From the NCBI GenBank assembly GCA_965277775.1, contig OZ255843.1, positions 455,451-519,450 on the forward strand: 64,000 nt of DNA, read 5' to 3'. The notes below the pieces were generated by a model that ran no database searches, was not told where the DNA came from, and saw only the letters and a list, made by a program, of their open reading frames with translations. Position numbers and translations under genes: made by a program. Positions 3,502 through 62,906 of this stretch are shown here, piece after piece; position 1 is the first letter of the stretch; every line of letters begins with the position of its first letter. The DNA comes from Gammaproteobacteria bacterium (lineage in GTDB: Bacteria; Pseudomonadota; Gammaproteobacteria; CAKMZV01).

Positions 3502-3574
3502 CGATAATATTATTTTGATTCTTTCTCCTATAATTTTTCAAGTTTTAGAAAAAATAGTGAGATGTGAAGGAGAC

Positions 3575-3634
3575 TCCTAACGCTTAAACTCAACGGCGGC
3601 GGAACGCCTTCCGCTGGAGTGCCTTGTTAGGCGT
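3575..3634 (-). repeat. attC site
   Basis: CCTAACGCTTAAACTCAACGGCGGCGGAACGCCTTCCGCTGGAGTGCCTTGTTAGGC. Confidence 0.65.
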
Positions 3635-43161: not shown

Positions 43162-44310
43162 ATGCGCTATTGGTTAACCAACATTTTAGGACTTTGTTTA
43201 CTCGCCATCTCTGGATTTGCTCACGCCATCAACACCTCAAACGGCTACAATTTGCCGATTGGCGTAACTTCTGTCAGTCGTGAGATTTATGATCTCCACA
43301 TGATCATTTTTTACATCTGCGTCGCAATCGGGGTTCTTGTCTTTGGTGCAATGGCCTACTCGATCATCAATCACAGAAAATCATTGGGTGTCAAACCCGC
43401 TCAGTTCCACGAAAGCACGACTATTGAATTAATTTGGACCATTATTCCGCTGGCCATCTTGGTGGTGGTTGCCATTCCTGCGACCAGCGTGCTGATTGAT
43501 TTAGAAGACAGCTCAAAATCTGATATGTCCATCAAAGTCACAGGCTATCAATGGAAATGGAAGTATGATTATCTTGATGGCGATGCTCAAGGCATCAGCT
43601 TCTTTTCAAATTTAGATGATCGCTCACGCAAAGAATTAGAGCGCTCACAAACCGCCGGTAAATTACCCGTTTACAAAAATTATCTGGTCGATGTTGATAA
43701 TGAACTGGTTGTGCCTATCAATAAAAAAATACGGTTTTTGATCACTTCAAACGATGTTATTCACGCTTGGTGGGTGCCTGATTTTGGCGTCAAACAAGAT
43801 GCCATTCCAGGCTTTATCAACGATACTTGGGCAAAAATTGATCAACCTGGTGTTTACCGAGGTAACTGCGCAGAACTTTGTGGTAAAGACCATGCCTTTA
43901 TGCCAGTGGTTGTTCGCGCCTTAACTGAAGAAGACTATGCCGCTTGGATTTACAACCAAAAGAATGCGGCTAAAATCGCTGCAGAAGCCGCCAACAAAAC
44001 CTTTTCCAAGGAAGAACTCATCAACGAAGGTAAACTGGTTTATGCAAGAGCCTGTGCCGCATGTCACCAAGCAGGTGGTCAAGGCGTACCAGGCGTATTC
44101 CCCGCCATTACTGCCAGCCCCCTTGCATTAGGTCCCATTGATCAGCATCTCGACATTATTTTAAATGGTAAAAGTGGAACGGCCATGCAGGCGTTTCGAG
44201 ATCAGTTAACCGATGTCGAACTCGCAGCTGTCGTTTCTTTTCAAAGAAATGGTTTAGGCAACAACGTTGGGGATTTCATGCAACCGAACCAAGTCAAAGC
44301 CAAGCGTTAA
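43162..44310 (+). CDS. coxB: cytochrome c oxidase subunit II with C-terminal cytochrome c domain
   Basis: CuA site HAWWVPDFGVK / CAELCG..H, C-terminal CAACHQ haem-c site; ORF opens at 43147. Confidence 0.9.
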   Translation: MRYWLTNILGLCLLAISGFAHAINTSNGYNLPIGVTSVSREIYDLHMIIFYICVAIGVLVFGAMAYSIINHRKSLGVKPAQFHESTTIELIWTIIPLAILVVVAIPATSVLIDLEDSSKSDMSIKVTGYQWKWKYDYLDGDAQGISFFSNLDDRSRKELERSQTAGKLPVYKNYLVDVDNELVVPINKKIRFLITSNDVIHAWWVPDFGVKQDAIPGFINDTWAKIDQPGVYRGNCAELCGKDHAFMPVVVRALTEEDYAAWIYNQKNAAKIAAEAANKTFSKEELINEGKLVYARACAACHQAGGQGVPGVFPAITASPLALGPIDQHLDIILNGKSGTAMQAFRDQLTDVELAAVVSFQRNGLGNNVGDFMQPNQVKAKR

Positions 44311-46059: not shown

Positions 46060-46641
46060 ATGCATAAAGCTCAGAAATGGTTTTACATCAAGTTGGTCAG
46101 CATTCCTGTGCTGATGTTCGGTTTTGCCTTTGCCCTCATTCCGCTTTATACAGTCCTTTGCGACATCACTGGTCTCAATGGCAGATCCTCAAATTTATCT
46201 GAAGTAGCACAACAATCTGAATTTAAGATTTCTGAAAATCGTCAAGTCAATGTCCATTTTTTAGCAAATGTCGCATCTGGCATGCCCATTGTCTTCTATC
46301 CAAAAGAAAGCAACATAGAATTGAAACCAGGCGAAATCACAACGGTTTATTACATTGCTGAAAACCGTTCTGATAAAACCATTTTTGGACAAGCCATTCC
46401 CAGTGTTGCACCAGAAGGCGCAGCCGCCCATCTTAAAAAATTAGAATGCTTTTGCTTCAATAAGCAAATATTTGCGCCCAATGATCGCGTTGAAATGCCC
46501 GTCCAAATTGTTGTTGATTCAGATTTAGATCAATCCATTGTAGAATTGACCCTCTCATACACCTTCTATCGTTTAGAAGATGAAACCCTCGACCAACCCA
46601 TCAACAAAAGCGTGATTAAAACCCACGGCTTGAACAGTTAG
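46060..46641 (+). CDS. ctaG: cytochrome c oxidase assembly protein CtaG/Cox11
   Basis: N-terminal TM, CFCF copper-binding motif. Confidence 0.85.
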   Translation: MHKAQKWFYIKLVSIPVLMFGFAFALIPLYTVLCDITGLNGRSSNLSEVAQQSEFKISENRQVNVHFLANVASGMPIVFYPKESNIELKPGEITTVYYIAENRSDKTIFGQAIPSVAPEGAAAHLKKLECFCFNKQIFAPNDRVEMPVQIVVDSDLDQSIVELTLSYTFYRLEDETLDQPINKSVIKTHGLNS

Positions 46642-46655
46642 AATCAGGAGATAAC

Positions 46656-47531
46656 ATGGCACATTCCTCAAATTCATATTACATCCCGCATGGTACTTCA
46701 TGGCCGATTATTGGCTCAATTGGCTTATTCATTATGTTATCGGGTTTTGCCAGCATGCTTCACGATTCACCGCTTGGTGGTACCATGTTAGCCGTTGGTT
46801 TGGCCATACTGCTCATCATGCTTTTTGGGTGGTTCTCTGAAGTCGTCAGCGAAAGTGAAAAAGGCATGTACAACGCCCAAGTTGACTTATCATTCCGTTG
46901 GGCAATGGGGTGGTTCATTTTCTCTGAAGTCATGTTCTTTGCCGCATTTTTTGGGGCTTTATTTTATGCCCGTGTGCTTTCAATCCCATGGTTAGACGGC
47001 GCAGGCACTGGCGCCATGACGAACGCACTACTCTGGCCTGATTTTAGTGCCACTTGGCCGCTGTTAGAATCGCCTGACACAACAAAATATCCCGCACCCT
47101 CTGGCATTGTTGCACCATTTGAAATTCCCTTATTGAACACCATCCTCTTATTGACATCGGGTGTGACCATCACTTGGGCACATCATGCCCTAAAAGCGGG
47201 TAATAGACAGCATCTACTCATCGGCATGTTGTTGACCGTCACATTGGGTATCGCCTTCCTATATTTTCAAGTCATAGAATATCAACACGCCTATGAACAA
47301 TACAGCCTTCGCTTAGACTCCGGTATTTATGGTAGCACCTTCTTCATGCTCACTGGATTTCACGGATTTCACGTGACCTTAGGAACCATCATGTTGATTG
47401 TGATCACCATGCGTTGCGCCAGAGGACACTTCAATAAAGAAAAACATTTTGCCTTTGAAGCCGTCGCTTGGTACTGGCACTTTGTTGACGTCGTATGGTT
47501 AGGATTGTTTATATTTGTTTACTGGCTGTAA
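46656..47531 (+). CDS. coxC: cytochrome c oxidase subunit III
   Basis: 291 aa, 7 TM, COX3 family sequence. Confidence 0.9.
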   Translation: MAHSSNSYYIPHGTSWPIIGSIGLFIMLSGFASMLHDSPLGGTMLAVGLAILLIMLFGWFSEVVSESEKGMYNAQVDLSFRWAMGWFIFSEVMFFAAFFGALFYARVLSIPWLDGAGTGAMTNALLWPDFSATWPLLESPDTTKYPAPSGIVAPFEIPLLNTILLLTSGVTITWAHHALKAGNRQHLLIGMLLTVTLGIAFLYFQVIEYQHAYEQYSLRLDSGIYGSTFFMLTGFHGFHVTLGTIMLIVITMRCARGHFNKEKHFAFEAVAWYWHFVDVVWLGLFIFVYWL

Positions 47532-47584
47532 AACCTCAAAGCTATCTAAGATACCTTAAACAAATCCACGCTACAGATCAAAAA

Positions 47585-47610
47585 GCCACACATTGTTGTG
47601 GCTTTTTTGT
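47585..47610. terminator. rho-independent terminator (bidirectional) after coxC
   Basis: GCCACA-cattgtt-GTGGC stem-loop followed by TTTTTT; A-run on the other side. Confidence 0.7.
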
Positions 47611-47827
47611 GTGCCTTCATTCTGCCCCGATCAATCAGCATTGATCTGCACCTTTAGACTATAGCAAGCCCCCTGCCCTGCAGACCGCCTTAGAACCGCT
47701 CAACGCAAAGAGCAAAACATAGGACATTTCAGCATAAATGCTTGTAAAATATTCATGCAATTGCCACTGGCTGTTATGCTCAAACACCATGCATGGATCA
47801 CATAATAAAGAATAAATAGGAATAACA

Positions 47828-50800
47828 ATGTCAAAATCAAAAATGAATTTTTCCTTTGATGTAGGAATGGCCTCTCTTGGCGTGGCCGTTAATAGAGGCA
47901 ACAAAATCATCCACGCAGACGCCCTCTTAATTCACTTAGAAGCGGGCTCCATAAAAGATGCCGCAACCAAACGACGACAGTATCGTACCAGACAAGCACA
48001 CAAACAACGCGAACAAGTCTTAGAAGACTTTTGGAGAAGCATTGGTAAAGAACCACTGCAACGCAAAAAATTCGAGAAAACAACAAAAGGATTTAAAAAA
48101 ACACCCGCAGATCGACGCTTAGAACAAGAATTTCCCTACGCAGGCGATAACACCGCCTACGCCTCGTCATTGTTGAGAATCATGTTGCTTGAAGGCCACC
48201 CGCTTGAGGATTGGCAAATATACAAAGCACTGAGTGCGGCCATTCAACGTAAAGGCTATGACCACAACGTGCCTTGGAAAACAAAAGACGACGACACAGA
48301 TGTCAGCGACAAAGATTTAGATTTACGCGAAGCCTTTAGTGCATACATTCGTGATATGCCTGAACAATATCAATTACCTTGTTATTTTGATGCAGCAAGA
48401 ATGGGATTGTGGTGCGAAAAAACCAAAAAAATTATTTCTGTCAAACAAGGCTCAAAGAAACCCGAACGCGCCAGAGGCTATAAGGCCGATCGAAAACTGG
48501 TTGATAAAGAATTAAGATTACTCTTGGAAGCGGCGGCCAAGCGCATACCTGAAATGCGCCTTAGCACAGAAGCCATGAATCAACTCATCTATGGCAAAGC
48601 AGAGATCAAACCAACTTCTGACAAAAGATACCCCTCCTATTCGAAGATCACTGGGTTGTTGGGGCAAAAATACCCACGCTTTGAAAATCGTATCGTCAGT
48701 AAATGTGCTTTGATTCCCCGACTGAACGTCTGTAAATCTTCAAATAAGCGGGCCATTGAAGTTGGTTTTTTAATGAAGTTGTTGAATTTACGTTATGAAT
48801 TGTATGATGAATTCACAGGTGATAAACAAGAAAAAAGTCTGAACCATGAACAAATAAAGCAAATATTCCAAGAGCTTAAAACTCAGAAAACAAAAGATTT
48901 TGAACCCGAGTCCTATGCCCAAAGGCTCAAACTGACTAATACCCAACTCAAGAAAAGAATCCAAGCGTTCAGCGGAGAGACTGCTCGGATTAAAAGCGGG
49001 CACGAAACGATAGAAAAGATCAGTATAACAGGCCGAAGTCGTTTTAGCCAGCCGGCGCTATACTTACTCAAACATATGATTTTACAAGGTCTCATACCGC
49101 GAGACTTTCATGCAGACTGTATGAAGCGCATTGAAAATTGTACAGACTCAAATAAGTTTGGGCACAAAATATTTAAAAATGCAACTTATCGTTTTTTTAA
49201 AGAAGATTTTGAATGCCTGAAGCTAATGGATGACAAAATTTACACGCCATCCATGCCCGCCAAACACTCTGACGATGTTAACCAACAAGTCGTCAACATC
49301 ATAAGCTCGTGCAATTGGCCTGAATTACGCCATAGATTAAACGTATTTGATACTGAGTTGCAAAACCTCGTTGAACAATTTGGTCAACCAGAAAGCGTTA
49401 ATTTTGAATTTATTCGTGAAGATTTTCTAAGTCTGGAAAAGAAAACGCAGTATGAAAGCCAAAGCCAACAAGGCAGAGACGAACGAGAGGCGGCAAGAAT
49501 TTCTTTAGCAGAAGCCAACATTAAGACAAACGAGCAAAACATCTTACGCTATCGATTACTGATTGAACAGAAAGGGCAATGTCCCTACACTGGAGAGGCA
49601 TTGAGCATTGCCGCCTTAGAGCATTATGATATTGATCATGTATTTCCAACATCCCAAGGTGGCCCCGATGCCTACTACAACAAGGTATTAACAAGTCACG
49701 TCGTTAATCAGAAACAAAAAGCCGATAAATTACCTTGCGAATTCATAGAGAACTGGAATAGTTACACACAACGTATAGATACAATCTATAAAGATCCTAA
49801 GAATTCCAAGAGACATTTAAGAAAACAAAAACTCTTGAGTGCCACAAGCCGAGATGAAGCAGAGGAATTAATTGAAAAATACACGGGTCTATCAGGCACC
49901 TCGTACATTGCTCGATTGGCCAGAGACATAGTATGCGCACGCTTTGGCTGGATTCCTGGGGCGAAGGATGAAACACAGAAAGTGTTTATTTTCGGTGGTG
50001 GGCTGACCAGTAAAATTGCCAAAGACAATAGTCTTTATAAAGCTCTCTCCGAAGATAACGACCCGTGGAATAAACCACGCCATGATCATCGTCACCATGC
50101 ACTTGATGCTATGGTCATTAGCTATTTAAAAGAATGGGCGCGCGATGAAACGAAGGCTGATTTTTTTACCTTTCCAAAGGGCATTGATAGACACTATTTC
50201 AAAACCAAGCTCGATGAAGTATATCCTCATTACGTCAGCAGAAGGAAACCTGCCTTGAGCGAACAGCCAAAAAAAGGTAAAGACGTCAACCGCACGGAAT
50301 TTCGTAATATCAGCAAAGACCCTGAAGCCAAAGGGCAATGGCATACCAGTAAAACGGTTACTGGTGAGGGAACCTTTCAACACGGTCATTTGATCTACTT
50401 GGATCGAAAGGACAAGGTTCGGCGTACAGCAATTCACAGTTTCCGCTCTCGTTTTCAAGAAGAAAAAATAATACAGCGCGATGAAAATAATCGCATTATT
50501 GGCTTTATCCGCTCGAGTCACTCATTGCACATAAAAGAAAACCTTTTCAAGGCTGTATTATTCGGGGGAAGTATAGAGAAACTTCCTAAGGGAGAATATT
50601 CGATTGAGAAAATACAAAAAAAATGCATCATCGAACACAGTAAAAAAGGCGAGCGCTATAGGATTGATAAAGCCAAGCTTGAAAAACAGTGTATCAGAAA
50701 TAAATTATTGGCAGGGCAAGTTTTTGTATTGCAAGGCTTTCGCCTTGACAAAGCTACAGAAATATCGGGACAATTTCGATATTCTAATGACCACGATTGC

Positions 50801-51109
50801 TTCATAAATGAAGAAACTGATGAACAAGTCATTATAAAATTTGATCGCTTGGTTACTCACCTCCATAAAAATAATTGGCTCACCAGCGATGAGTTATCAA
50901 ATACCAAAATCGTTGAAATAAATACAGCTATTTCAGGTCATAAAGATGATAAGACAGTGAATAACCTACCCGCAGGTTATTATTTAATAAAGCAGTTCCA
51001 AGGCAATTATGTACACCTCAGATCTCAGCAGGGATTAGTCTATAAGTTGACGGTAAACATTTTAAATCCAATATTTAAAGATGAGCCACCATCTACTCCA
51101 TCTTCTTAG
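47828..51109 (+). CDS. cas9: CRISPR-associated endonuclease Cas9, type II-C-like (1093 aa)
   Basis: RuvC-I FSFDVGMASLGVAV; Arg-rich bridge helix KRRQYRTRQAHKQR; RuvC-II NFEFIRE; HNH HYDIDHVFPTSQGG...NKVLT...N; RuvC-III HDHRHHALDAMV; followed by cas1-cas2 and array. Confidence 0.9.
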   Translation: MSKSKMNFSFDVGMASLGVAVNRGNKIIHADALLIHLEAGSIKDAATKRRQYRTRQAHKQREQVLEDFWRSIGKEPLQRKKFEKTTKGFKKTPADRRLEQEFPYAGDNTAYASSLLRIMLLEGHPLEDWQIYKALSAAIQRKGYDHNVPWKTKDDDTDVSDKDLDLREAFSAYIRDMPEQYQLPCYFDAARMGLWCEKTKKIISVKQGSKKPERARGYKADRKLVDKELRLLLEAAAKRIPEMRLSTEAMNQLIYGKAEIKPTSDKRYPSYSKITGLLGQKYPRFENRIVSKCALIPRLNVCKSSNKRAIEVGFLMKLLNLRYELYDEFTGDKQEKSLNHEQIKQIFQELKTQKTKDFEPESYAQRLKLTNTQLKKRIQAFSGETARIKSGHETIEKISITGRSRFSQPALYLLKHMILQGLIPRDFHADCMKRIENCTDSNKFGHKIFKNATYRFFKEDFECLKLMDDKIYTPSMPAKHSDDVNQQVVNIISSCNWPELRHRLNVFDTELQNLVEQFGQPESVNFEFIREDFLSLEKKTQYESQSQQGRDEREAARISLAEANIKTNEQNILRYRLLIEQKGQCPYTGEALSIAALEHYDIDHVFPTSQGGPDAYYNKVLTSHVVNQKQKADKLPCEFIENWNSYTQRIDTIYKDPKNSKRHLRKQKLLSATSRDEAEELIEKYTGLSGTSYIARLARDIVCARFGWIPGAKDETQKVFIFGGGLTSKIAKDNSLYKALSEDNDPWNKPRHDHRHHALDAMVISYLKEWARDETKADFFTFPKGIDRHYFKTKLDEVYPHYVSRRKPALSEQPKKGKDVNRTEFRNISKDPEAKGQWHTSKTVTGEGTFQHGHLIYLDRKDKVRRTAIHSFRSRFQEEKIIQRDENNRIIGFIRSSHSLHIKENLFKAVLFGGSIEKLPKGEYSIEKIQKKCIIEHSKKGERYRIDKAKLEKQCIRNKLLAGQVFVLQGFRLDKATEISGQFRYSNDHDCFINEETDEQVIIKFDRLVTHLHKNNWLTSDELSNTKIVEINTAISGHKDDKTVNNLPAGYYLIKQFQGNYVHLRSQQGLVYKLTVNILNPIFKDEPPSTPSS

Positions 51110-51965
51110 CCCCAACATTTTCATTAATAAACAAAATGGGCTATTAAATTATGTGCGGGGAGATGAGCGCAGACAGTTGCCCCTTGAAGACATTCGTGGT
51201 GTCATCATTGCCACCAAAGGGGTCACACTAACCGATGCCATAATATCGGCATTGCTTGAAAATGGTGCATTTATACTGCACTGCAATGCCCAGTACCAAC
51301 CCATTGGATTGACCGAACCCACAGCCAAAATAGTGCGTCGTAAAGTGGCACAGTGTCAAGCCAAAGCGACTCAAAAGCTTTGTAAAGCGCTCTGGCAACG
51401 AATATTGCGCCAAAAAATCCAAAATCAAAGAAAAACGCTGAAATTCATTGGATGTTCCACCGATTATTTGGATAAGCAGTTAAATCAAAATAACTTGAAT
51501 GAATCGATCTGTGCTCGTCAATATTGGCGAGCCATGTTTATTGATTTGGGCTATGTTGGTTTAACGCGTCGTCACGACAATGAACATGATATTAATAAAA
51601 TGCTCAATTATGCTTATGCCGTCTTAGGTGCCATTTGTCATCGATCTATTGTCGCCCATGGTATGAGCCCATTGTTTGGCGTACACCACACCGCCAATTT
51701 TCACAATCATCCGTTGGTTTACGATTTAATCGAGCCATTTCGCCCCTTCATCGACAAACAATTGTGGTTATTTATAAAAAATGGGGATTCCAGTGTCGAT
51801 CTAAAAAATTGGTTGAATTTTTCCAAAAATTGTTGGCAAATGACCATTCATCACAATCAACGTCGTTTGCAATTAATTGATGCTGTGGATGTGGTTGTAC
51901 AAAAAATGGCCCAAGCTTTTCAAACTAAAGATGCTCAAGCGTTATGGCTTCCAGAAGTTCCATAA
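51081..51965 (+). CDS. cas1: CRISPR-associated endonuclease Cas1 (type II)
   Basis: RRQLPLEDIRGVIIATKGVTLTDAIISALLENGAFILHCNAQYQPIG closely resembles type II-C Cas1; overlaps cas9 3' end. Confidence 0.9.
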   Translation: MSHHLLHLLSPNIFINKQNGLLNYVRGDERRQLPLEDIRGVIIATKGVTLTDAIISALLENGAFILHCNAQYQPIGLTEPTAKIVRRKVAQCQAKATQKLCKALWQRILRQKIQNQRKTLKFIGCSTDYLDKQLNQNNLNESICARQYWRAMFIDLGYVGLTRRHDNEHDINKMLNYAYAVLGAICHRSIVAHGMSPLFGVHHTANFHNHPLVYDLIEPFRPFIDKQLWLFIKNGDSSVDLKNWLNFSKNCWQMTIHHNQRRLQLIDAVDVVVQKMAQAFQTKDAQALWLPEVP

Positions 51966-51967
51966 AA

Positions 51968-52291
51968 ATGGGCAGAATACTGGTACTGTTTGACCTACCG
52001 GTTAATACAGCGAAAGAGCGTAAAATTGCGTCAAAATTCCGAAAGGACATGCTTAACGATGGCTACATCATGCTCCAGTTCTCAGTCTATATGAGAACTT
52101 TTGTCTCGTGGGAGCGCATGAAAAAGCACGCCAAACGCCTCGCCCTTATGGCCCCCAATGGAGGCAACATAAGGATTTTTTTCATTACCGAAAAACAATG
52201 GCTTAAGTCCATAAGCATTGACGACATGGCGTATAAGCAAAAAAAGCAAATACGAACCCCACATCAATTGGATCTATTTACCATCTGGTAA
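51968..52291 (+). CDS. cas2: CRISPR-associated endoribonuclease Cas2
   Basis: MGRILVLFDLP...GYIMLQFSVYMR; ATG 51968 is 2 nt after cas1 stop; frame is open from 51944. Confidence 0.85.
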   Translation: MGRILVLFDLPVNTAKERKIASKFRKDMLNDGYIMLQFSVYMRTFVSWERMKKHAKRLALMAPNGGNIRIFFITEKQWLKSISIDDMAYKQKKQIRTPHQLDLFTIW

Positions 52292-52412
52292 CGAAGAGCA
52301 GTGCTTAGTAAGTTGTCGAATTAGTTAAGATCCCCATCTGCATATAGCTACGATCAACTTATTAGGGTGCTCAGAATTTGTTTAAATTATATATCCTATT
52401 AATTTTTTATGT
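52292..52412. promoter_or_regulatory. AT-rich cas2-array junction (possible leader)
   Basis: 121 bp AT-rich non-coding segment directly abutting first repeat. Confidence 0.35.
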
Positions 52413-55400
52413 ATTATACTCTGCTGGAAAAACGGGGGGGATCAAAACGGAAAACATTGCTACAAATGCAATTTCCGCATTATACTCTGCTGGAAAAACG
52501 GGGGGGATCAAAACATTTGGAATGAGTGGTTTAGAGATCAGAAATTATACTCTGCTGGAAAAACGGGGGGGATCAAAACCTAACTGACACCTTTTGTAAA
52601 ATGGTGGCAATTATACTCTGCTGGAAAAACGGGGGGGATCAAAACCCTACACCCGTGGGAAAAATCGATAAACTGATTATACTCTGCTGGAAAAACGGGG
52701 GGGATCAAAACCAGCGGGAAATGTCCAACACAGCTTTACAAATTATACTCTGCTGGAAAAACGGGGGGGATCAAAACTGCATTTTCGGTTATGATTTTCC
52801 AGACAAAATTATACTCTGCTGGAAAAACGGGGGGGATCAAAACCCGAATACCACCCTTGACCCGTGGCATTACATTATACTCTGCTGGAAAAACGGGGGG
52901 GATCAAAACGAACCACACAAGACAGCGGTTTAATGTGGCATTATACTCTGCTGGAAAAACGGGGGGGATCAAAACGTTTGGGGTGATCGAAAACGATCAC
53001 AATTAATTATACTCTGCTGGAAAAACGGGGGGGATCAAAACTGCTCGCTTAAATGAGCGAAGGTTGGCCAATTATACTCTGCTGGAAAAACGGGGGGGAT
53101 CAAAACAAACTGGTCAAAATATACAGTAAGTATGACATTATACTCTGCTGGAAAAACGGGGGGGATCAAAACCAGCGCGCGATCATGAGGCAGCTGGGCT
53201 CAATTATACTCTGCTGGAAAAACGGGGGGGATCAAAACGTCGTACTTGCTATATATTTTGACAAGTTTATTATACTCTGCTGGAAAAACGGGGGGGATCA
53301 AAACCAGACTGACACCTTTTGTAAAATGGTGGCAATTATACTCTGCTGGAAAAACGGGGGGGATCAAAACTACCGTTTGGTCTGGGATAATTTTGAGAAA
53401 TTATACTCTGCTGGAAAAACGGGGGGGATCAAAACAATTCAGAGAGGCGGTCGCCATGCAGCATTATTATACTCTGCTGGAAAAACGGGGGGGATCAAAA
53501 CTGGCATTACTCTATTAATTTCCCTTCTTTAATTATACTCTGCTGGAAAAACGGGGGGGATCAAAACTGGCCTACTCGGCTCAATGGGCGACGCGGAATT
53601 ATACTCTGCTGGAAAAACGGGGGGGATCAAAACCGAACCGTGCTATCAAACTCACCAGCCTTAATTATACTCTGCTGGAAAAACGGGGGGGATCAAAACC
53701 CGATCGACCAACTTGTTAATGTTGACTTATTATACTCTGCTGGAAAAACGGGGGGGATCAAAACCCAAACACGACCCTTGACCCTTGGCATTATATTATA
53801 CTCTGCTGGAAAAACGGGGGGGATCAAAACAGGTAAGGCCTCTTCAACAAAGACTGGCAATTATACTCTGCTGGAAAAACGGGGGGGATCAAAACAAATC
53901 CTTCGATTTTTCGTGGACAGTCAATATTATACTCTGCTGGAAAAACGGGGGGGATCAAAACTCGGTTCGCGCTTCAGCATATAAGTCAGCGATTATACTC
54001 TGCTGGAAAAACGGGGGGGATCAAAACCAGAGAGCTAATCCCCATTCAAGAAGCGATATTATACTCTGCTGGAAAAACGGGGGGGATCAAAACTACAAAG
54101 GAGAACAAAAGGTTACTCATCCGATTATACTCTGCTGGAAAAACGGGGGGGATCAAAACTAGCTCAGCGATTGGGAAAAGGGCATCATATTATACTCTGC
54201 TGGAAAAACGGGGGGGATCAAAACCTTCGAGTGTGGTTCTTTGGACTGCTTGTTATTATACTCTGCTGGAAAAACGGGGGGGATCAAAACATCAACAGTT
54301 ATTGTAAGTTCCTTTGAAGCATTATACTCTGCTGGAAAAACGGGGGGGATCAAAACCGAACTGTGATCAGCTCTGCCACGTTCAGATTATACTCTGCTGG
54401 AAAAACGGGGGGGATCAAAACTTCGTATGCATTTAATTACATTTCACCTAGATTATACTCTGCTGGAAAAACGGGGGGGATCAAAACATACGTGAATATA
54501 TGCCGATCTTTGAACTCATTATACTCTGCTGGAAAAACGGGGGGGATCAAAACAGATTTCGAGATTTCCTTCGATATTTGCAAATTATACTCTGCTGGAA
54601 AAACGGGGGGGATCAAAACAACCTGCAGACCATTAAAGACGAACCCCGCATTATACTCTGCTGGAAAAACGGGGGGGATCAAAACTTAAAATGGAACTGC
54701 ATATCCATTATGAGTATTATACTCTGCTGGAAAAACGGGGGGGATCAAAACGATAATAGGATTGACATTGATAGCTACTTGATTATACTCTGCTGGAAAA
54801 ACGGGGGGATCAAAACAGATACTGGACTTTTAGTTCCAGTCTTTGTATTATACTCTGCTGGAAAAACGGGGGGGATCAAAACATGGGTCAAACCTAAAAC
54901 CAACTGAACCAATTATACTCTGCTGGAAAAACGGGGGGGATCAAAACACCAGCACGCTGCTGGATTAGCTGGCATTGATTATACTCTGCTGGAAAAACGG
55001 GGGGGATCAAAACTGCGGGTTGATCTGGGTAAATACTTTCAATATTATACTCTGCTGGAAAAACGGGGGGGATCAAAACCCCCAAACCAGCTCCACTGAT
55101 TCCACGACTATTATACTCTGCTGGAAAAACGGGGGGGATCAAAACCCTATGACAAGTCTTGATAAATTTATTGAAATTATACTCTGCTGGAAAAACGGGG
55201 GGGATCAAAACGGACATTTAAAATTTATAATAAAAACGAAGATTATACTCTGCTGGAAAAACGGGGGGGATCAAAACAGATACTGGACTTTTAGTTCCAG
55301 TCTTTGTATTATACTCTGCTGGAAAAACGGGGGGGATCAAAACCGGCGAACCGCCCGATTATGTTAAAGCTTTATTATACTCTGCTGGAAAAACGGGGGG

Positions 55401-57111
55401 GATCAAAACCCCCAAACGAGTTCTACCGATTCGACGACTATTATACTCTGCTGGAAAAACGGGGGGGATCAAAACTATACACCTCCAGCAACAAAAACAA
55501 CCCTTATTATACTCTGCTGGAAAAACGGGGGGGATCAAAACCTTATTGAGCTCGGGATATTCCCAGATCCAATTATACTCTGCTGGAAAAACGGGGGGGA
55601 TCAAAACTGCGGTTTGATCCTTGACACGGCTGGTCACATTATACTCTGCTGGAAAAACGGGGGGGATCAAAACCATTGCTTTTGCGCTGAATTCCATCGG
55701 GCAATTATACTCTGCTGGAAAAACGGGGGGGATCAAAACTGCGGGCAGTATTTGCTATTTGGTGAGCGTATTATACTCTGCTGGAAAAACGGGGGGGATC
55801 AAAACCAGCACGCACACCATAATTGCATTACACACATTATACTCTGCTGGAAAAACGGGGGGGATCAAAACTATCGCTTGGTGTGGGACAATTTCGAGAA
55901 ATTATACTCTGCTGGAAAAACGGGGGGGATCAAAACGTATCTGTATCAGCACTATTTTTTATAAGATTATACTCTGCTGGAAAAACGGGGGGGATCAAAA
56001 CCATTGAGATGAGCGTAGCTGAATGGTCGAGATTATACTCTGCTGGAAAAACGGGGGGGATCAAAACTGATGATGAAGTTGCAAGACGTGCACGCGCATT
56101 ATACTCTGCTGGAAAAACGGGAGGGATCAAAACCGACGATGTCTCGTCGCCCAGGTATAGCGGATTATACTCTGCTGGAAAAACGGGGGGGATCAAAACC
56201 TGGCGATGTGTACCCCACCGATTACATTAATTATACTCTGCTGGAAAAACGGGGGGGATCAAAACTCGTACAATGGGCTTGAATATCCAACAGACATTAT
56301 ACTCTGCTGGAAAAACGGGGGGGATCAAAACGGATTGATCGGTGTCGATAAACGGGCGAAAATTATACTCTGCTGGAAAAACGGGGGGGATCAAAACCGG
56401 CCATACAGAATGAAAAAAACAAAAAGTATTATACTCTGCTGGAAAAACGGGGGGGATTATACTCTGCTGGAAAAACGGGGGGGATCAAAACGTATTACCA
56501 CCTAACGAAGCCCACTTGGATATTATACTCTGCTGGAAAAACGGGGGGGATCAAAACTGAATAAACAGACATAGTAACTCCTAATTAATTATACTCTGCT
56601 GGAAAAACGGGGGGGATCAAAACTAGGAGGTGCAAGAATGATAATGTCGTTGAATTATACTCTGCTGGAAAAACGGGGGGGATCAAAACTAGGAGGTGCA
56701 AGAATGATAATGTCGTTGAATTATACTCTGCTGGAAAAACGGGGGGGATCAAAACCTAATTCTTTGATTATGTATTTCCCTTCTATTATACTCTGCTGGA
56801 AAAACGGGGGGGATCAAAACGATGAAGGCGTTCTGATGAACAGTCACAGAATTATACTCTGCTGGAAAAACGGGGGGGATCAAAACTTATAATTTCTATT
56901 TCGTCGTCAACGTCCATTATACTCTGCTGGAAAAACGGGGGGGATCAAAACGAAACATTGCATTCTGACTTCGTTGGCTTTATTATACTCTGCTGGAAAA
57001 ACGGGGGGGATCAAAACTAAAACCCCGGTCAAAGACTGATCGGGGGGATTATACTCTGCTGGAAAAACGGGGGGGATTATACTCTGCTGGAAAAACGGGG
57101 GGGATCAAAAC
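52413..57111 (-). CRISPR. CRISPR array, ~71 x 36-bp repeat, spacers 29-31 bp; plus-strand repeat ATTATACTCTGCTGGAAAAACGGGGGGGATCAAAAC; canonical type II orientation is minus strand GTTTTGATCCCCCCCGTTTTTCCAGCAGAGTATAAT
   Basis: directly visible 66-bp periodicity over 4.7 kb; first repeat 52413-52448, last full repeat ends 57111; orientation inferred from GTTTTG...AAT form and the TATAAT at the repeat end. Confidence 0.97.
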
Positions 57112-57114
57112 TCC

Positions 57115-57303
57115 TTGGAGCAAACAGAACAAATTGAAGGGCATGAGGTCAAAGATTTTAGTGTGAGTGAAACGATGAAATATGATCATCTACCACAGAT
57201 TGATGTCGCCCACAAATGGGGGTTTGACGTTAGATTTTCGTTCATAGACAAACCTGATGTTCTTGGGAAGCTGTATCCTACTGATAAAAAAATATTTAAC
57301 TAA
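57115..57303 (+). CDS. hypothetical small protein
   Basis: 62-aa ORF immediately after array; coding status uncertain. Confidence 0.3.
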   Translation: MEQTEQIEGHEVKDFSVSETMKYDHLPQIDVAHKWGFDVRFSFIDKPDVLGKLYPTDKKIFN

Positions 57304-57364
57304 TGAATAAGGCAGTGCATTTTTTCACGAATTAGTTCACTATGCGGATCATCTTTGTGGTAGC

Positions 57365-57619
57365 ATGCTTCTTAAAACGCCGAGCGAAAGTGAGATTGTT
57401 GCTGAATTTGGCGCAGCGGTCTTGAAAAGAATGCATATGGATAGCACTGATGAATACCTTAAAGAAAGTATCCATTATGTCGAATATCATGCAAGAAAAA
57501 CTGGGAAGGGTGCATATGAGGCCGCAACAGACCTTATACAGCGATCATTGTCTGCAATTGAATTGATTGACCAAACGGCTCAGGAAATTAAAAACAAGAC
57601 AAAGTCTTCTAAAGAATAG
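57365..57619 (+). CDS. hypothetical small protein
   Basis: 84-aa ORF, plausible composition. Confidence 0.35.
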   Translation: MLLKTPSESEIVAEFGAAVLKRMHMDSTDEYLKESIHYVEYHARKTGKGAYEAATDLIQRSLSAIELIDQTAQEIKNKTKSSKE

Positions 57620-57654
57620 TACTCAGAATAACCATATTTAACAGGTCCATTATT

Positions 57655-58866
57655 ATGAGAAATTCAATTTTAGGTTTAATCGCTATATCAATTGCTATGA
57701 TGTTAAGTGGTTGCGGTTCTGCAAAAGATGATCCAATAATTCCAATCAGCACAAACACTCGTACCATTCAGACACAACAGGTTAATGAGGTCCGCAATGC
57801 AATGACAAATGTCGATGCAAGTCTGGTTGCATACCAGCGCGCAACCTCCGCATCAGATATACAGGCTCAAACAAACGCTTTAACACTAATGGCATCCAGC
57901 TTAGAGCAGCTCACAACAGCCGTGCGAGTAGCTCAACCATATTTAGATTACTCGTTATACAGAGCAGTTGCTGACCAGATGGGGAGGATCGATCAAGCGG
58001 GCATGCAAAACGTTCAGGTTATGGCTCAAATGGCGCAGGTAGAAATTATTACGGCAGTTGGTTTTTTAAGAACAAGCCGCGCACAGCTTCAAAGCACAAC
58101 AGATAGACTAAGTGTGCTCGATCGATCGATGGCTGCAACAAATGCTAGGTTAAACGTTATTGAGTCCGGCACAACCACATCAGTCGATAAAGTCAGGCTT
58201 TTAGTCCTTGCAGAAGTTGCCCGCTTAACAAGCTCTGATACAGCCATTCAGAACAGGATAACCACAGTGACCAACTCGCTCACAACGGCTATCGCTGATA
58301 ACACAAGGCTGATTGCTCAAAACTCATCGAACACCGCCGCCCAGTTGTTGAGCATAAATTCATCATTAACAAACATCATTGATCAAAACAATGCGCAAGG
58401 GCTCATAAATACATCAACAACCAGAGCGATTGAGGCAATGAGGGCAGTTATTGGTGAGCAGATAAGCCAAGAGGTGGCGAAACTACAAGCAAATATAAAT
58501 GCTAACCACAGCACATTAACAGCGCGAATTGATTTGTTGCAACAAGCAGTTGACGTGCTCCAAACAACAACAGTCATATCAATTGTCAGCAGTCTAAACG
58601 CCCATGTCATTACCCAAGGTGTTGTAAATAGCTCTTTAAGCTCATCAATCTTGAGCTTACAAACATCATTAACGAACTACATCGCATCATCAATTTTGTC
58701 ATTGTCTAACTCTTTATCAGCCACATCATCAACAGTCAATGCCCGGATTGATCAACTGCATTCAATTGTGGGGGCATTGCGAAATGAAGACTACCAGCTA
58801 GCTGTGCTAATAAGCAGTTTAACCAGTCGGGTGACTAGTAACTCAACCACCACCCAATCCAGATAA
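57655..58866 (+). CDS. lipoprotein with long alpha-helical Ser/Thr/Asn/Gln-rich repeat region
   Basis: lipobox MMLSGCGS; the C-terminal ~220 aa is ~90% identical to the N-terminus of the next ORF. Confidence 0.6.
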   Translation: MRNSILGLIAISIAMMLSGCGSAKDDPIIPISTNTRTIQTQQVNEVRNAMTNVDASLVAYQRATSASDIQAQTNALTLMASSLEQLTTAVRVAQPYLDYSLYRAVADQMGRIDQAGMQNVQVMAQMAQVEIITAVGFLRTSRAQLQSTTDRLSVLDRSMAATNARLNVIESGTTTSVDKVRLLVLAEVARLTSSDTAIQNRITTVTNSLTTAIADNTRLIAQNSSNTAAQLLSINSSLTNIIDQNNAQGLINTSTTRAIEAMRAVIGEQISQEVAKLQANINANHSTLTARIDLLQQAVDVLQTTTVISIVSSLNAHVITQGVVNSSLSSSILSLQTSLTNYIASSILSLSNSLSATSSTVNARIDQLHSIVGALRNEDYQLAVLISSLTSRVTSNSTTTQSR

Positions 58867-58907
58867 GCCTCATCCAAGCAGAGCTGCTCAATCTTAATGC
58901 TCATAGA

Positions 58908-61900
58908 TTGTCTATTCTTGCACAAGTTGCACGGCTCTCAAGTACTGATGCGGCCATTCAGAGTAGGATAACGACAGTAACCAACACGCTTATAACGGCT
59001 ATCGCAGACAACATACGACTAATTGCTCAAAACTCATCGAGCACTGCTGCCCAGTTGTTGAGCATAAACTCCTCATTGACAAGCATCATTGCCCAAAACA
59101 ATGCGCAAGGGCTCATCAACTCATCCACCACCAGAGCGATTGAAGCAATGAGAATGGCCATTAGCGCTCAGATCACCCAAGAAGTGGCCAAATTACAAAC
59201 AAATATAAACGCCAATCACAGCACATTAACAGCAAGAATTGATTTGTTGCAGCAAGCAATAGACGTTCTCCAAACAACCACTGTCATATCAATTATCAAC
59301 AGCTTGAACGCGCACGTCATCACACAAGGGGTTGTGAACAGCTCACTAACCGCCTCAATATTGAGCTTACAGGCCTCCTTAACCAACTACATTACTTCAT
59401 CGATTTTATCGCTGTCAACCTCTTTAACAGTGACCTCCTCAACTATAAATGCTCGGATCGACCAACTCAACTGGGTTATTGGCGGGCTGGTCAGCGAGGA
59501 TGCAAGGTTAGCTCTGGTTATTGCTGGATTGACCAGCTCTATCACCTCCAGTTTGAACAACTCATCGAACCAAATTTCCATACTTCAGGCACAGGTCGCA
59601 CAGCTTACGGCTAGTGTAAGCGCACTACAAGCACTCCATAGAACACCGGACGTTCCAATTGGGACGCCCACTAATGTTGCTGGTAAAGCGGTAGACGGAT
59701 TAGTCATAGGCGGAACAGTAAGGGTTTACACCATCAATGAAAGCGACTACTCACCAAACATTCTTATTGGCTCGACGAAAACAGATTCAAACGGGGCGTT
59801 CAGTGTCACTCTTTACGGGCTTACCGCAACACAAATATTACTTTATGAAGTTTCTGGCGGCTATTACATTGAAGAGTGGACACAACAACGATTTGATCTT
59901 CGAACAGGTGATAAACTGTATGCAATTGATAGGGTTGAGACGACATCAGGCACGGCCAATGTTTCAATAACCATCTCAGGCTTTACAAATCTAACATATG
60001 CACTGGCGCTTTATCGTAAAAACCACACATACATTGACTCGTCACTAAGAATTAGACCAACAATTTCGCAGGCAAGGGATTATGCGACACCGATTGTGAA
60101 TTTAGTATTAGGCGGAGTGAATGCTGAAAAAACTGTTTTCAAAGACATCACATCATCTGACTACGCTGTTTCCAAGCCACAATTTGCTTCTGACGTTGAT
60201 TCATTTTGGTACTCATTTTATGTTTCGGGCGTTTCAGGTTTAATGGCTAGTGAAAGCGTGAAGCAAGGCGCTAATTTTTATTCAATTGATTTTTGGAAGG
60301 CGCTTTATGATGACGTTTTAACTGACGGTGTTATTGACGGGAAAGGCATCAATTTAAAGCAGATAGGGATAGGTATTCGTCCGCTTGAGCCTGATATGCT
60401 CAGAACAGAGGCTATGCGCTTTGCGAATCAATTCAAAACATCTAAACTACAACACATCCGATTTGACACAAACGGGCATTCAAGTTTTGAACAAAAAATG
60501 AACATTGTGCATAGCTCGACCGATCCTATATTCGGCAAAATAAGCGCCAGCCCACTTGATGGTGACCCACCCATAATAAAAGCCAACCCGATTGCAGGCG
60601 CTATTACAACCAACCATGTGGTGGTTACTATAAGCGACGCATCATCAATAACAAGTATGATCTACTCCCTACTTGATAGCAATAACACCGAACTCAGTAG
60701 GACGGTTTATGATCTGCTCAATCATTCTGGCGGTAATGCATACAAGTTAAGCGTTGATCTTAACCAAACTTCAGGAATATACAAAATGGTTATAACTGCC
60801 TCCGATGGCCATTTGTTAAGCCGTTCAACAGTAACATTCTCCATTGTCAATGACGCGCCAAAACTTTCAATAACATCATCCACCCGAACCACAACCGGGA
60901 CGATAACAATACACGGCTCTTATTCTCTCCCATACCCTCAATTTACGGACATACAAAGCATCTCTATAAGCGATACGGTCAATGGTATGGGGACAAAGCA
61001 GGCAATAATTAATACAGGAACAAAAACATTCACAAGCTCCTTTTCTGCAAACTCCTCTGGCCTGTACACGATTGACATTAAAGTTTGCGATACTATTGGC
61101 AACTGTCACACATATGTCATCAAAAGATCCGTTGATAAAGACAGCCCGCGCATTTTTTCATCGGCCTTCGGTCAAGGTGCAGGACTAAAACAATGGTACA
61201 TATCGCCCTCTCTTGGTTACCAGGCATTTTGGGGGCGGATAAATCCTTATTTCGTTGAGCGAACCGTTAGCCAGCTAAAAATATCAGGCGCTTACGATAG
61301 AATAAGCAGTCATTTGTTTTCAAACGGCAATTATAAACTTGGTGCTACAATAATTACTGAGCGCGAATTAGACCAAGCGAACATTAACTATTATGCCTTT
61401 AACGCTGATGACACAGGACTACCAGCATCAACTCCGCTTGACGATTTAGTTATTAAATTAAAATATAGCACGGCAAGCTATAACGCACACTATTACAAAT
61501 CGGGTCCATCCTCTTACACCTCTATCCCACCCACATCCAAAACAATAACCATTGTTAAAGAAACGACGATGAGCGCGCGCACATTTGCAACAGCTCTTGG
61601 CACAAAATCAAAAAGGGTGATAATACCTCTAACAACTGAGTTCTGGGGCAATAGCCTTATCAAAGAGAACTTGTTTACAACCCACATTTTTGAAATAAGC
61701 GTGTGTGATAAGGCGGGACTGTGCACAACCAAAACATTTGGCCTTTTACTGGCTATTGAATCGCCCACACAGAAGTCATTGAACGGATCACTAACTACTT
61801 TGCAAAAAGATTTAAATTTTTTGCAAGGAGTTACACCTCTTGTGAATAGAAAACGCCAAATGGGTGGTGAAAAACAGTTTTACAAATATTCAGTTAAGAA

Positions 61901-62906
61901 CACAGAGGTGATGCCTTTGTTCATCAACATTGGCTCGATCAATTCGGTGGCCACCCTCACAAGAACATTCCAACAGAAAACTGTTCTCAATGTTCCCGAA
62001 TGGAATCGAAGCATGTTTGCTGTGAGATCGGTTTCATGCTCCGATCCCGACGTTACTAAACCAAACACAACCGCTGTAACACAAATCAGCCTTAAAGAGA
62101 ACTTTCGAGTTTCAACGCTGTTGTCCAAAAACCAGCCCGACCCAATAACTGTGGGAGAACCGTGCAAATTCAGAGATTTTGACGGAAGAACACTTTACTC
62201 TGTAACAACATCCACTGGCTTTCATTTTACGGATTGTAGTCGCGATCAAGGTTACTACACTGCAACAACCTCCACCTACAAGGCCTTCTCTACAACACCA
62301 ACGAACACTTATTACAACAACAGCTCCTGTTCGTACCGCACACCATACACTGCAATATGCCAAAGAGGTAGCTCTAAAGCAGGGTACCAGGACTACCTTT
62401 GCACAAAACATCACACGCACACCCGGACAAGACAAAATGGAGTGTTCCACAATAATATTAGGCCATATCACACAACAAAAACCGTATCTGTGCCATACGT
62501 GATTTCAAGATATTTTTACAATAGACACGTACTGACATCTAGCACAACAACAATTAAGGAGACAACAACAGACCACCCTTCGCATTTTAACGCTAAGCTA
62601 GGCGGACTTGATTTCGGCATCAGCACGGGATCGTCCACCTCTTGGTTCAAGATACCGCCCGGCGAAACCATTGAGTTTTTCGATTCTTTGTTGGTGAACG
62701 CGCCTTCTTGGCATGACAACAATGGTACTGATTTAGACAACATCCTCACCGAAGGTGTCTACAGAAAGGACATCTCCCTTGAATTCAACTATAAACCAAC
62801 ATTCGTAGTGAAAATCAAACGAGCAGATGACATTAATTCACTCACAACCCCTTTGATTGAAGAAACATCCGACAATCTACCAGCCCAACAAATACTACTA
62901 AAATAG
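58908..62906 (+). CDS. very large (1332 aa) putative surface/adhesin-like protein
   Basis: N-terminal segment duplicated from the upstream lipoprotein, then ~1100 aa Thr/Ser-rich beta-type sequence with many Cys near the C-terminus; no family recognised. Confidence 0.55.
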   Translation: MSILAQVARLSSTDAAIQSRITTVTNTLITAIADNIRLIAQNSSSTAAQLLSINSSLTSIIAQNNAQGLINSSTTRAIEAMRMAISAQITQEVAKLQTNINANHSTLTARIDLLQQAIDVLQTTTVISIINSLNAHVITQGVVNSSLTASILSLQASLTNYITSSILSLSTSLTVTSSTINARIDQLNWVIGGLVSEDARLALVIAGLTSSITSSLNNSSNQISILQAQVAQLTASVSALQALHRTPDVPIGTPTNVAGKAVDGLVIGGTVRVYTINESDYSPNILIGSTKTDSNGAFSVTLYGLTATQILLYEVSGGYYIEEWTQQRFDLRTGDKLYAIDRVETTSGTANVSITISGFTNLTYALALYRKNHTYIDSSLRIRPTISQARDYATPIVNLVLGGVNAEKTVFKDITSSDYAVSKPQFASDVDSFWYSFYVSGVSGLMASESVKQGANFYSIDFWKALYDDVLTDGVIDGKGINLKQIGIGIRPLEPDMLRTEAMRFANQFKTSKLQHIRFDTNGHSSFEQKMNIVHSSTDPIFGKISASPLDGDPPIIKANPIAGAITTNHVVVTISDASSITSMIYSLLDSNNTELSRTVYDLLNHSGGNAYKLSVDLNQTSGIYKMVITASDGHLLSRSTVTFSIVNDAPKLSITSSTRTTTGTITIHGSYSLPYPQFTDIQSISISDTVNGMGTKQAIINTGTKTFTSSFSANSSGLYTIDIKVCDTIGNCHTYVIKRSVDKDSPRIFSSAFGQGAGLKQWYISPSLGYQAFWGRINPYFVERTVSQLKISGAYDRISSHLFSNGNYKLGATIITERELDQANINYYAFNADDTGLPASTPLDDLVIKLKYSTASYNAHYYKSGPSSYTSIPPTSKTITIVKETTMSARTFATALGTKSKRVIIPLTTEFWGNSLIKENLFTTHIFEISVCDKAGLCTTKTFGLLLAIESPTQKSLNGSLTTLQKDLNFLQGVTPLVNRKRQMGGEKQFYKYSVKNTEVMPLFINIGSINSVATLTRTFQQKTVLNVPEWNRSMFAVRSVSCSDPDVTKPNTTAVTQISLKENFRVSTLLSKNQPDPITVGEPCKFRDFDGRTLYSVTTSTGFHFTDCSRDQGYYTATTSTYKAFSTTPTNTYYNNSSCSYRTPYTAICQRGSSKAGYQDYLCTKHHTHTRTRQNGVFHNNIRPYHTTKTVSVPYVISRYFYNRHVLTSSTTTIKETTTDHPSHFNAKLGGLDFGISTGSSTSWFKIPPGETIEFFDSLLVNAPSWHDNNGTDLDNILTEGVYRKDISLEFNYKPTFVVKIKRADDINSLTTPLIEETSDNLPAQQILLK

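Follow-up and report, generated by a model that had tools for sequence, protein, structure and literature searches.

A type II-C-style CRISPR-Cas9 locus of a gammaproteobacterium with a predicted circularly permuted tracrRNA

Introduction

Which RNA guides a Cas9 when its locus carries no tracrRNA of the usual architecture? The question is raised by a locus in 64,000 nucleotides (nt) of DNA, here called the window, from a Gammaproteobacteria bacterium (assembly GCA_965277775.1, contig OZ255843.1, positions 455,451 to 519,450 of the forward strand). In the window, cas9, cas1 and cas2 are followed by a CRISPR array. We looked for the trans-activating CRISPR RNA (tracrRNA) that could serve this Cas9, both in the window and in homologous loci of other genomes, which are given L numbers. 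Our preferred reading, to which we assign a probability of about 0.7, is that the locus encodes a working type II-C-style system with a circularly permuted tracrRNA in the 121 nt that separate cas2 from the array.

Results

A predicted tracrRNA of rearranged order

Alignment of the minus strands of the cas2-array gaps of relatives revealed a conserved element of ~75 nt. In the window it reads 5'-GCA C / arm2 / connector / antirepeat / linker / arm1 / CAC UGC-3' (Table 1). The predicted element would supply what type II systems require of a tracrRNA, an antirepeat complementary to the repeat: the duplex consists of 3 base pairs (bp), a 2x2 U.U mismatch and 7 bp, with an energy of -18.4 kcal/mol. 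It departs from the canonical architecture of a 5' antirepeat followed by nexus and hairpins and then a terminator, in that the arm expected after CACUGC lies 5' of the antirepeat.

The canonical form was represented by 42 distinct tracrRNAs from Verrucomicrobiota-type loci, again on the minus strand between cas2 and the array. These have the order promoter, antirepeat (~25 nt, ending in UCUUAAC), linker, arm1, C(A/U)C-UGC-NNN-GCA-C, arm2 and U-run. All 21 loci of the window clade, and L174 as well, have the permuted order at this position; it runs GCA-C, arm2, a connector of 13-20 nt, a short antirepeat ending in UCUUAAC, linker, arm1 and CAC-UGC. The adjacencies between antirepeat and arm1, between arm1 and CACUGC, and between GCAC and arm2 are all kept, the triloop has been lost, and what were once the two ends are now connected. 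The tracrRNA of the window clade appears to be a circular permutation of that of its relatives, as judged from covariation in the stem, covariation between repeat and antirepeat, and two mutually exclusive covariance models.

In the alignment of the permuted long-range stem (A2, 16 sequences), 92.3% of cells were paired compared with 78.4% in shuffles, and none of the 500 shuffles reached the observed value. Slid controls gave at most 53% paired cells, and changes on both sides were seen in 15 of 18 pairs. The canonical hairpin (alignment A5) showed 94.7% paired cells, with 113 cells doubly changed. Repeat and antirepeat, compared in 28 distinct pairs from both forms, were 93.5% paired, a percentage inflated by taking as antirepeat the best-pairing 14-mer ending in a TAAC-like motif; double changes occurred in 8 of 12 pairs. 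The antirepeat follows the repeat of its lineage (AUC/GAU, AUU/AAU, AUUG/CAAU, AUUU/AAAU and ACUUC/GAAGU), and in the window a change of U9 to C in the repeat is met by A to G in the antirepeat. Pairing with the repeat covers ~13 nt in the permuted form, as against ~25 of 30 positions in the canonical form.

The two covariance models represented the canonical form (R1) and the permuted form (R2). On held-out canonical loci R1 reached 60-83 bits, and on divergent lineages 24-43 bits; in 16 loci of the permuted clade it gave no more than 16 bits (E 0.1). It had no match at the CRISPR locus of the window, where its sole match (44169-44211, 8.5 bits, E 9.6) is likely a chance one. With R2, each of the 22 permuted-clade loci, the held-out L001, L002, L006, L164, L167 and L174 among them, had exactly one match (56-98 bits), that of the window at 76.3 bits and E 6e-16. 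R2 had no match at E<=1 in ~147 other loci. A scan of JGI metagenomes yielded no further members of the permuted clade.

Candidate signals were present at both ends of the element. Of 21 loci, 11 have a TAnnnT box 6-8 nt 5' of the G that begins GCAC; this is also the distance of the -10 box in the core sponge clade. In L007, L013, L163 and L166 CACUGC is immediately followed by a U-tract, of which the window has a weaker version. An additional 10-22 bp lengthen the terminal GCA/UGC helix in L162, L165 and L174, which would be expected if both RNA ends meet there.

Two further features of these gaps were noted. Long C-homopolymer, (CT)n or (CTCCT)n tracts separate the tracrRNA 3' end from the cas2 stop codon in L004, L006 and L008. 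A conserved ACGURGGAAU(C/N)GGGG segment lies 2-16 nt after the cas-proximal repeat (minus strand) in L003, L004, L006, L007, L010 and L012, and pairs on paper with the 5' end of the repeat at 11-12 of 14 positions, several of them G.U; it may be a leader-anchoring signal or a coincidence.

Other searches for a tracrRNA

A search for an antirepeat by simple identity gave nothing above chance. When the window and 11 relatives were scanned with RNAduplex, most matches were G-rich chance ones and there was no other consistent antirepeat, Rfam gave no match in 46500-58500 at E<=1, and a promoter and terminator scan stayed at background level. RNAcofold, which cannot represent a pseudoknotted complex, gave either the antirepeat duplex or the stem, never both.

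Two other sites were considered and rejected. The segment at 57951-57995 (+), inside a 403-amino acid (aa) open reading frame (ORF), gave the best RNAduplex match: it looks like a repeat in scrambled order and could on paper pair along nearly the entire minus-strand repeat at -32 kcal/mol, but a match internal to cas9 reaches -30.2 kcal/mol and the segment lies in an island absent from L001. The 297-nt region 5' of cas9 contains only an 8-nt match, GAUCAAAA, beside the cox terminator.

Cas9 and its C-terminal module

The permuted tracrRNA was seen only alongside Cas9s with a rare, divergent C-terminal module resembling a protospacer-adjacent motif (PAM)-interacting (PI) domain. In the window Cas9 this PI/WED-like module spans aa ~813-1093; it is rare in databases, being found in 19 of 1.84 billion representative clusters. 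L174 (41% Cas9 identity) has both the module and the permuted RNA, and L173, the nearest canonical outgroup (40% identity, same repeat 5' end), has no C-terminal match. For a much larger set of homologues (Verrucomicrobiota, Lentisphaerota, Akkermansia and Melainabacteria) the alignment is limited to aa 1-812, at 30-40% identity.

The same boundary is visible in family profiles. The window Cas9 matches TIGR01865 (194.5 bits), PF13395 (HNH_4), PF18541 (RuvC_III) and NF049971, the last at 636.9 bits (cut-off 375) with aa 8-813 aligned to model positions 3-768 of 986. Cas9s of the canonical clade match positions 1-986 at >1000 bits, and those of the permuted clade end at position ~775. To judge from these matches, NF049971 is in effect a model of the Verrucomicrobiota-type Cas9 set.

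The preliminary description of this locus, made from the DNA alone, had listed a full set of nuclease signatures in Cas9, and each was found: RuvC-I FSFDVGMASLGVAV (aa 8-21), RuvC-II EFIRE (aa 527-531), HNH DIDHVFP (aa 601-607) and RuvC-III HDHRHHALDAM (aa 752-762). The catalytic residues D11 (RuvC-I), E527 (RuvC-II), H604 and N627 (HNH), and H757 and D760 (RuvC-III) are invariant in 30 homologues. These motifs, the family profiles and Foldseek place the protein among type II effectors with a split RuvC-I/II/III and an inserted HNH domain.

The description had also seen little resemblance to the Cas9s of Neisseria meningitidis (Nme), Campylobacter jejuni (Cje) and Sp, and distance from characterised orthologues was borne out. 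Foldseek matched the window Cas9 to Cas9 structures (E 2.5e-22) at 12-16% identity to Sa, St1, Nme and Thermo Cas9, so that the closest solved structures are II-C and II-A Cas9s. The best PDB profile matches were Nme and Geo/ThermoCas9, and the best PDB sequence match spanned the RuvC-II/HNH/RuvC-III region only (E 1.5e-12); high full-length identity to a characterised Cas9 was not seen. The isolation of the protein was overstated: it belongs to the NF049971 family and has ~40 full-length homologues at 35-50% identity. Nor is it an orphan: its exact sequence was publicly available beforehand, encoded on a 2.06-Mb contig. The full-length homologues come from metagenome-assembled genomes (MAGs). 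The few with names are Ca. Poriferihabitaceae, Ca. Spongiihabitans, Ca. Azotimanducaceae, Halieaceae and Spirochaetia, and the named relatives are sponge- or marine-invertebrate-associated gammaproteobacterial MAGs; the label of a methylotroph-like genome is not supported. From its sequence, the host is a marine symbiont-type gammaproteobacterium and the CRISPR-Cas9 locus is real and intact.

Locus layout and subtype

As first described, cas9, cas1 and cas2 overlap and are followed by an array of ~4.7 kilobases (kb). The predicted organisation is a single coupled plus-strand operon of the three genes, and a tracrRNA gene and array that would both be transcribed from the minus strand (Table 1). 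Cas1 scores 165.1 bits against TIGR03639 (cas1_NMENI), for which the cut-off is 120, and Cas2 scores 66 bits against TIGR01573. The ORF list, together with scans of every neighbouring ORF against protein families, showed no match to Csn2 or Cas4 in or adjoining the locus.

Table 1. Features of the CRISPR-Cas9 locus (window positions; the RNA elements are predicted)
Feature	Position	Strand	Description
cas9	47828-51109	+	1093 aa; ORF call with NCBIfam and Pfam matches
cas1	51081-51965	+	294 aa, type II NMENI-type; 29-nt overlap with cas9
cas2	51944-52291	+	115 aa; 22-nt overlap with cas1
Predicted circularly permuted tracrRNA	52298-52370	-	73 nt; covariance-model match spans 52295-52373
Conserved CAC-UGC	52298-52303	-	directly after the 3' arm
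3' arm of long-range stem	52304-52318	-	homologous to arm1 of canonical relatives
Antirepeat core GGGGAUCUUAAC	52324-52335	-	pairs with nt 1-12 of the minus-strand repeat, GUUUUGAUCCCC
5' arm of long-range stem	52351-52366	-	homologous to arm2 (3' arm of the terminal hairpin in canonical relatives)
TATAAT -10-like box	52386-52391	-	15 nt 5' of the GCAC start
CRISPR array	52413-57111	- (inferred transcription strand)	~72 repeats, 4.7 kb
Spacer 2	52515-52543		29/29 match to Microviridae (Gokushovirinae) major capsid genes (VP1)

The locus has the gene content of subtype II-C, with cas9, cas1 and cas2 only, no csn2 or cas4, and a Cas1 of the NMENI lineage. By gene content and Cas1 type its architecture is II-C, in agreement with the initial assignment. 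The name of NF049971.1, 'type II CRISPR RNA-guided endonuclease Cas9d', suggested subtype II-D, which is defined by a cas1-cas2-cas4 module and a small deep-branching Cas9 (Makarova et al. 2025, PMC12669027). We rejected this on the grounds of cas4, Cas1 type and size: no Cas4 match was found at the window locus, its Cas1 is of the NMENI type and its Cas9 has 1093 aa. In relatives, cas9 and the array lie too close together for a cas4 to fit between them. The solved compact Cas9d structures were absent from the PDB sequence and fold matches of the window Cas9, of which the closest are II-C. The model name is all that the window locus has in common with II-D and the compact Cas9d (PMC12669027; Aliaga Goltsman et al. 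2022, PMC9755519).

NF049971.1 fits end to end the ~1050-aa Verrucomicrobiota-type Cas9s of cas9-cas1-cas2 loci. Its name conflicts with the published II-D definition of a cas4-bearing locus and a compact Cas9, and could mislead annotation.

Repeats, spacers and targets

The array contains ~72 units of a 36-nt repeat, ATTATACTCTGCTGGAAAAACGGGGGGGATCAAAAC on the plus strand, and ~70 spacers of 29-30 nt. The repeat had been introduced as a 36-bp C-run repeat; the length was right, and the C-run lies on the minus strand. There the repeat reads GUUUUGAUCCCCCCCGUUUUUCCAGCAGAGUAUAAU and ends in a -10-like TATAAT. On the same strand, the repeats of 79 loci of the family start with GUUUUG and nearly all end in TAnnnT (TATAAT, TAGAAT, TACAAT and others). 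Degenerate repeats lie at the cas-distal, older end in L003 and L008. We infer that the array is transcribed on the minus strand.

About 70 of the window repeats are identical. The window and L001 have no spacer in common, and this wholly different content points to turnover. Several irregularities were seen within the array. Repeat fragments of 28 nt at 56428-56455 and 57048-57075 lack the last 8 nt (ATCAAAAC, plus strand) and are joined to a full repeat without a spacer; the repeat at 54782-54816 has 6 rather than 7 G, and that at 56098-56133 has GGGAGGG. These could stem from recombination, slippage or homopolymer assembly error. Spacers are exactly duplicated at 54817/55278 and 56624/56690. 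Four further pairs (52580/53305, 52844/53765, 53371/55872 and 55080/55410) differ at 2-5 positions and share their boundaries, as if one site had been acquired from variant viruses.

In a phage collection, spacer 2 matched two gokushovirus VP1 records at 29/29 positions and 36 records at >=90%. The match falls in the region of the capsid gene that codes for IWNEWFRDQN, for example at 454-482 of MH572494.1, from Ciona gut. The duplicated spacer 37/44 matched another VP1 site with 7 mismatches, and exact and degenerate spacer scans of IMG/VR gave 0 matches. The match of spacer 2 implies that single-stranded DNA microviruses probably infect the symbiont lineage of the window. The preliminary description had proposed to derive the PAM by mapping spacers; spacer 2 could be mapped, and its protospacer flank on the PAM side for a minus-strand CRISPR RNA (crRNA) is CAAATTATA or AAGATTATA, but this is one protospacer family, too little for a PAM call.

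Genomic context

Genes 5' of the locus encode COX2, COX1, CtaG and COX3. The coxC (COX3) gene occupies 46656-47531 and its stop codon lies 296 nt 5' of cas9, in line with the ~300 bp first reported. A horizontal insertion after the oxidase operon had been proposed from this position and from the island-like genes past the array; as a recent event it is not supported: the locus occupies the same cox site in L001 (89% Cas9 identity) and in the decayed L002 (87%), and G+C content is 40-46% across the region with no step at the locus. In more distant members the locus lies in unrelated neighbourhoods. On this comparison of sequences, the locus is mobile over long time-scales and is not a recent arrival in the window genome.

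L002 (10001-14900, OZ255827.1) has a cas9 truncated to 998 aa, a fragmented cas1 and only ~5 degenerate repeats, and its permuted tracrRNA is still recognisable at 72.7 bits. In both L001 and L002 the array is followed by genes for a GGR-like flavin adenine dinucleotide (FAD) protein and a CMAS methyltransferase. In the window, three ORFs (84, 403 and 1332 aa) lie past the array at 57365-62906 and are absent from L001 and L002; they match no Pfam, NCBIfam, PHROG or PADLOC family, with only faint coiled-coil-like JetC matches. By this comparison, the block 57365-62906 is what is specific to the window genome.

Discussion

How a permuted tracrRNA could work

The signs of activity at the window locus are its intact ORFs, its identical repeats and the 29/29 spacer match to gokushovirus VP1. 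In the proposed mechanism, crRNAs would start from the -10 box inside the preceding repeat, as in Neisseria and Campylobacter, and consist of a guide of ~23 nt followed by repeat. The permuted tracrRNA would be made from its own promoter, or in L161 from the promoter of the terminal repeat. The first ~13 nt of the repeat would then form a duplex with the antirepeat, with the conserved 2x2 U.U mismatch kept. Since the antirepeat lies within a large loop that the arm2/arm1 helix closes, the complex would be an intermolecular pseudoknot. The RNA ends would be placed in the former apical loop and the old ends linked by the connector of ~15 nt; this connector must bridge the base of the hairpin and the far end of the repeat:antirepeat duplex, which would account for the short antirepeat. 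The repeat:antirepeat complex is unlikely to be a substrate of RNase III. Like its relatives, Cas9 may read the arm helix together with the CAC/C internal loop and the UGC/GCA helix, here through a remodelled C-terminal PI/WED-like module, and the complex would cut PAM-flanked double-stranded DNA of invaders, gokushoviruses included.

We consider it probable that these features extend to the whole Cas9 clade, from sponge and marine-symbiont Gammaproteobacteria and a few Spirochaetia-type members. The clade would then use a naturally permuted tracrRNA that ends in the former apical loop, with crRNA docking as an intermolecular pseudoknot, and that co-evolved with a replaced C-terminal RNA-/PAM-binding module. 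This would be the first permuted CRISPR guide scaffold. The most plausible origin of the permutation is that the tracrRNA gene was duplicated in tandem and the outer halves were then lost. In L081, two canonical tracrRNA copies of the same orientation flank the array (3502-3577 and 5464-5537; 34 and 43 bits), with no cas1 or cas2 between cas9 and the array, and tracrRNA duplication is thus known to occur in this Cas9 family.

Weighing the alternatives

Several observations weigh against a permuted tracrRNA. The window stem is AU-rich with two mismatches and, at -10.4 kcal/mol (z-score +0.28 versus shuffles), is no more stable than shuffled sequence; stems of relatives fold at z-scores of -2.4 to -5.1, so the case for the window locus is a comparative one. 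The strand test based on G.U versus A.C pairs favours the minus strand modestly (14 versus 8), no consistent 3' terminator is present across the clade, and the 5' and 3' ends of the RNA, and its being a single molecule, are predictions. The choice of best-pairing antirepeats in the covariation test belongs here too, as does the span of the search for canonical tracrRNAs, which covered ±10 kb around each cas9. Finally, the Cas9 of L081, a locus with canonical RNA, aligns with that of the window as far as aa 944, so that a strict association with the permutation is confined to the last ~150 aa.

Some of these points would suit an ordinary II-C locus whose true canonical tracrRNA was missed, having either diverged too far or been encoded at another place in the 2-Mb genome, with the element being a leader or integration-site structure or a read-through terminator. 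The element in the window is thermodynamically unremarkable, has an undefined 3' end and sits in the leader-proximal gap, where integration signals are expected, and the search covered ±10 kb per locus. This explanation nevertheless seems improbable to us: the element bears the tracrRNA signatures of the family at the same position and on the same strand, its antirepeat co-varies with the repeat of each lineage, the canonical model stayed at or below 16 bits in 16 loci, and duplex scans of 12 loci gave no other consistent antirepeat. We also doubt that GCA-C-arm2 and antirepeat-arm1-CAC-UGC are two RNAs that assemble in trans on Cas9, in the manner of a two-piece transfer-messenger RNA (tmRNA). 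The connector is the least conserved part, with a TATAT-like motif in many loci, and two-piece tmRNA and other permuted RNA genes mature in this way. The connector is nevertheless held to a length of ~13-20 nt, promoter spacing within it is not conserved, and the conserved -10 box lies 5' of GCAC.

That the window locus is an inactive, decaying remnant is very improbable. Its three ORFs are intact with invariant catalytic residues, ~70 repeats are identical, the spacers are wholly different from those of L001, implying turnover, and one of them matches an extant virus family exactly. These features outweigh the two truncated repeat fusions and the duplicated spacers of the array, and the precedent of L002, where at the same site cas9 is cut short, cas1 is disrupted and the repeats have degenerated.

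A permuted tracrRNA would have practical consequences. Current tracrRNA finders and design rules for single-guide RNAs assume an antirepeat followed by 3' hairpins, and would therefore mis-call or miss this clade, in which fusion of repeat and antirepeat by a tetraloop would not be the native topology. The natural permutation would reveal which RNA elements Cas9 reads regardless of how the chain is connected, namely the helix, the CAC/C loop and the UGC/GCA helix. It suggests new sites for opening or extending guide scaffolds, as the former loop would hold two free ends and some members carry an extra 10-22 bp there. The pairing of an RNA topology with a C-terminal module would offer a ready-made case of RNA-protein co-evolution, and the Cas9 itself is a predicted, uncharacterised 1093-aa orthologue from AT-rich symbionts with single-stranded DNA microviruses as likely targets.

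Comparison with known systems

A full-text literature search found no description of a permuted tracrRNA for any Cas9; in surveys of how tracrRNAs vary, antirepeat, nexus and 3' hairpins are the only elements described. The type II-C systems of N. meningitidis and C. jejuni, reportedly described by Zhang et al. (2013, Mol Cell) and Dugar et al. (2013, PLoS Genet), resemble the window locus in their cas9-cas1-cas2-array order without csn2 or cas4, their NMENI-type Cas1 and their 36-nt repeats. Neisseria and Campylobacter II-C repeats contain their own promoters, with a -10 element at the repeat 3' end and a transcription start within the spacer. The hexamer at the end of the transcribed-strand repeat is -10-like in both, TATAAT in the window and TACAAT in Nme, and by this analogy implies that repeat-embedded promoters and RNase III-independent crRNAs may operate in the window. 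Outside the nuclease core, identity to the window Cas9 is 12-16%. The Nme and Cje tracrRNAs have a 5' antirepeat followed by 3' hairpins, whereas the antirepeat of the window is internal, ~13 nt long and enclosed by a long-range helix.

The NF049971 clade is closer, with 30-40% identity over aa 1-812, the same locus layout and the repeat family GUUUUGA..CCCC....TAnnnT. Its RNAs share the UCUUAAC antirepeat end with a 2x2 U.U mismatch and the CAC-UGC/GCA-C motif. Members of that clade have a full-model match and a canonical tracrRNA, whereas those of the window clade match to position ~770 and have another C-terminal module and a permuted RNA. Circularly permuted RNA genes are known elsewhere, as two-piece tmRNA in alpha-proteobacteria and cyanobacteria, the permuted tRNA of Cyanidioschyzon, and permuted twister and hammerhead ribozymes; to our knowledge none of these is a component of a CRISPR guide RNA. 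As in the predicted tracrRNA, their helices and conserved nucleotides are kept, the ends now lie in what was a loop, and the original ends have been connected. What is new is a predicted II-C-type Cas9 system that combines a rearranged guide-RNA scaffold with a matching rare C-terminal module.

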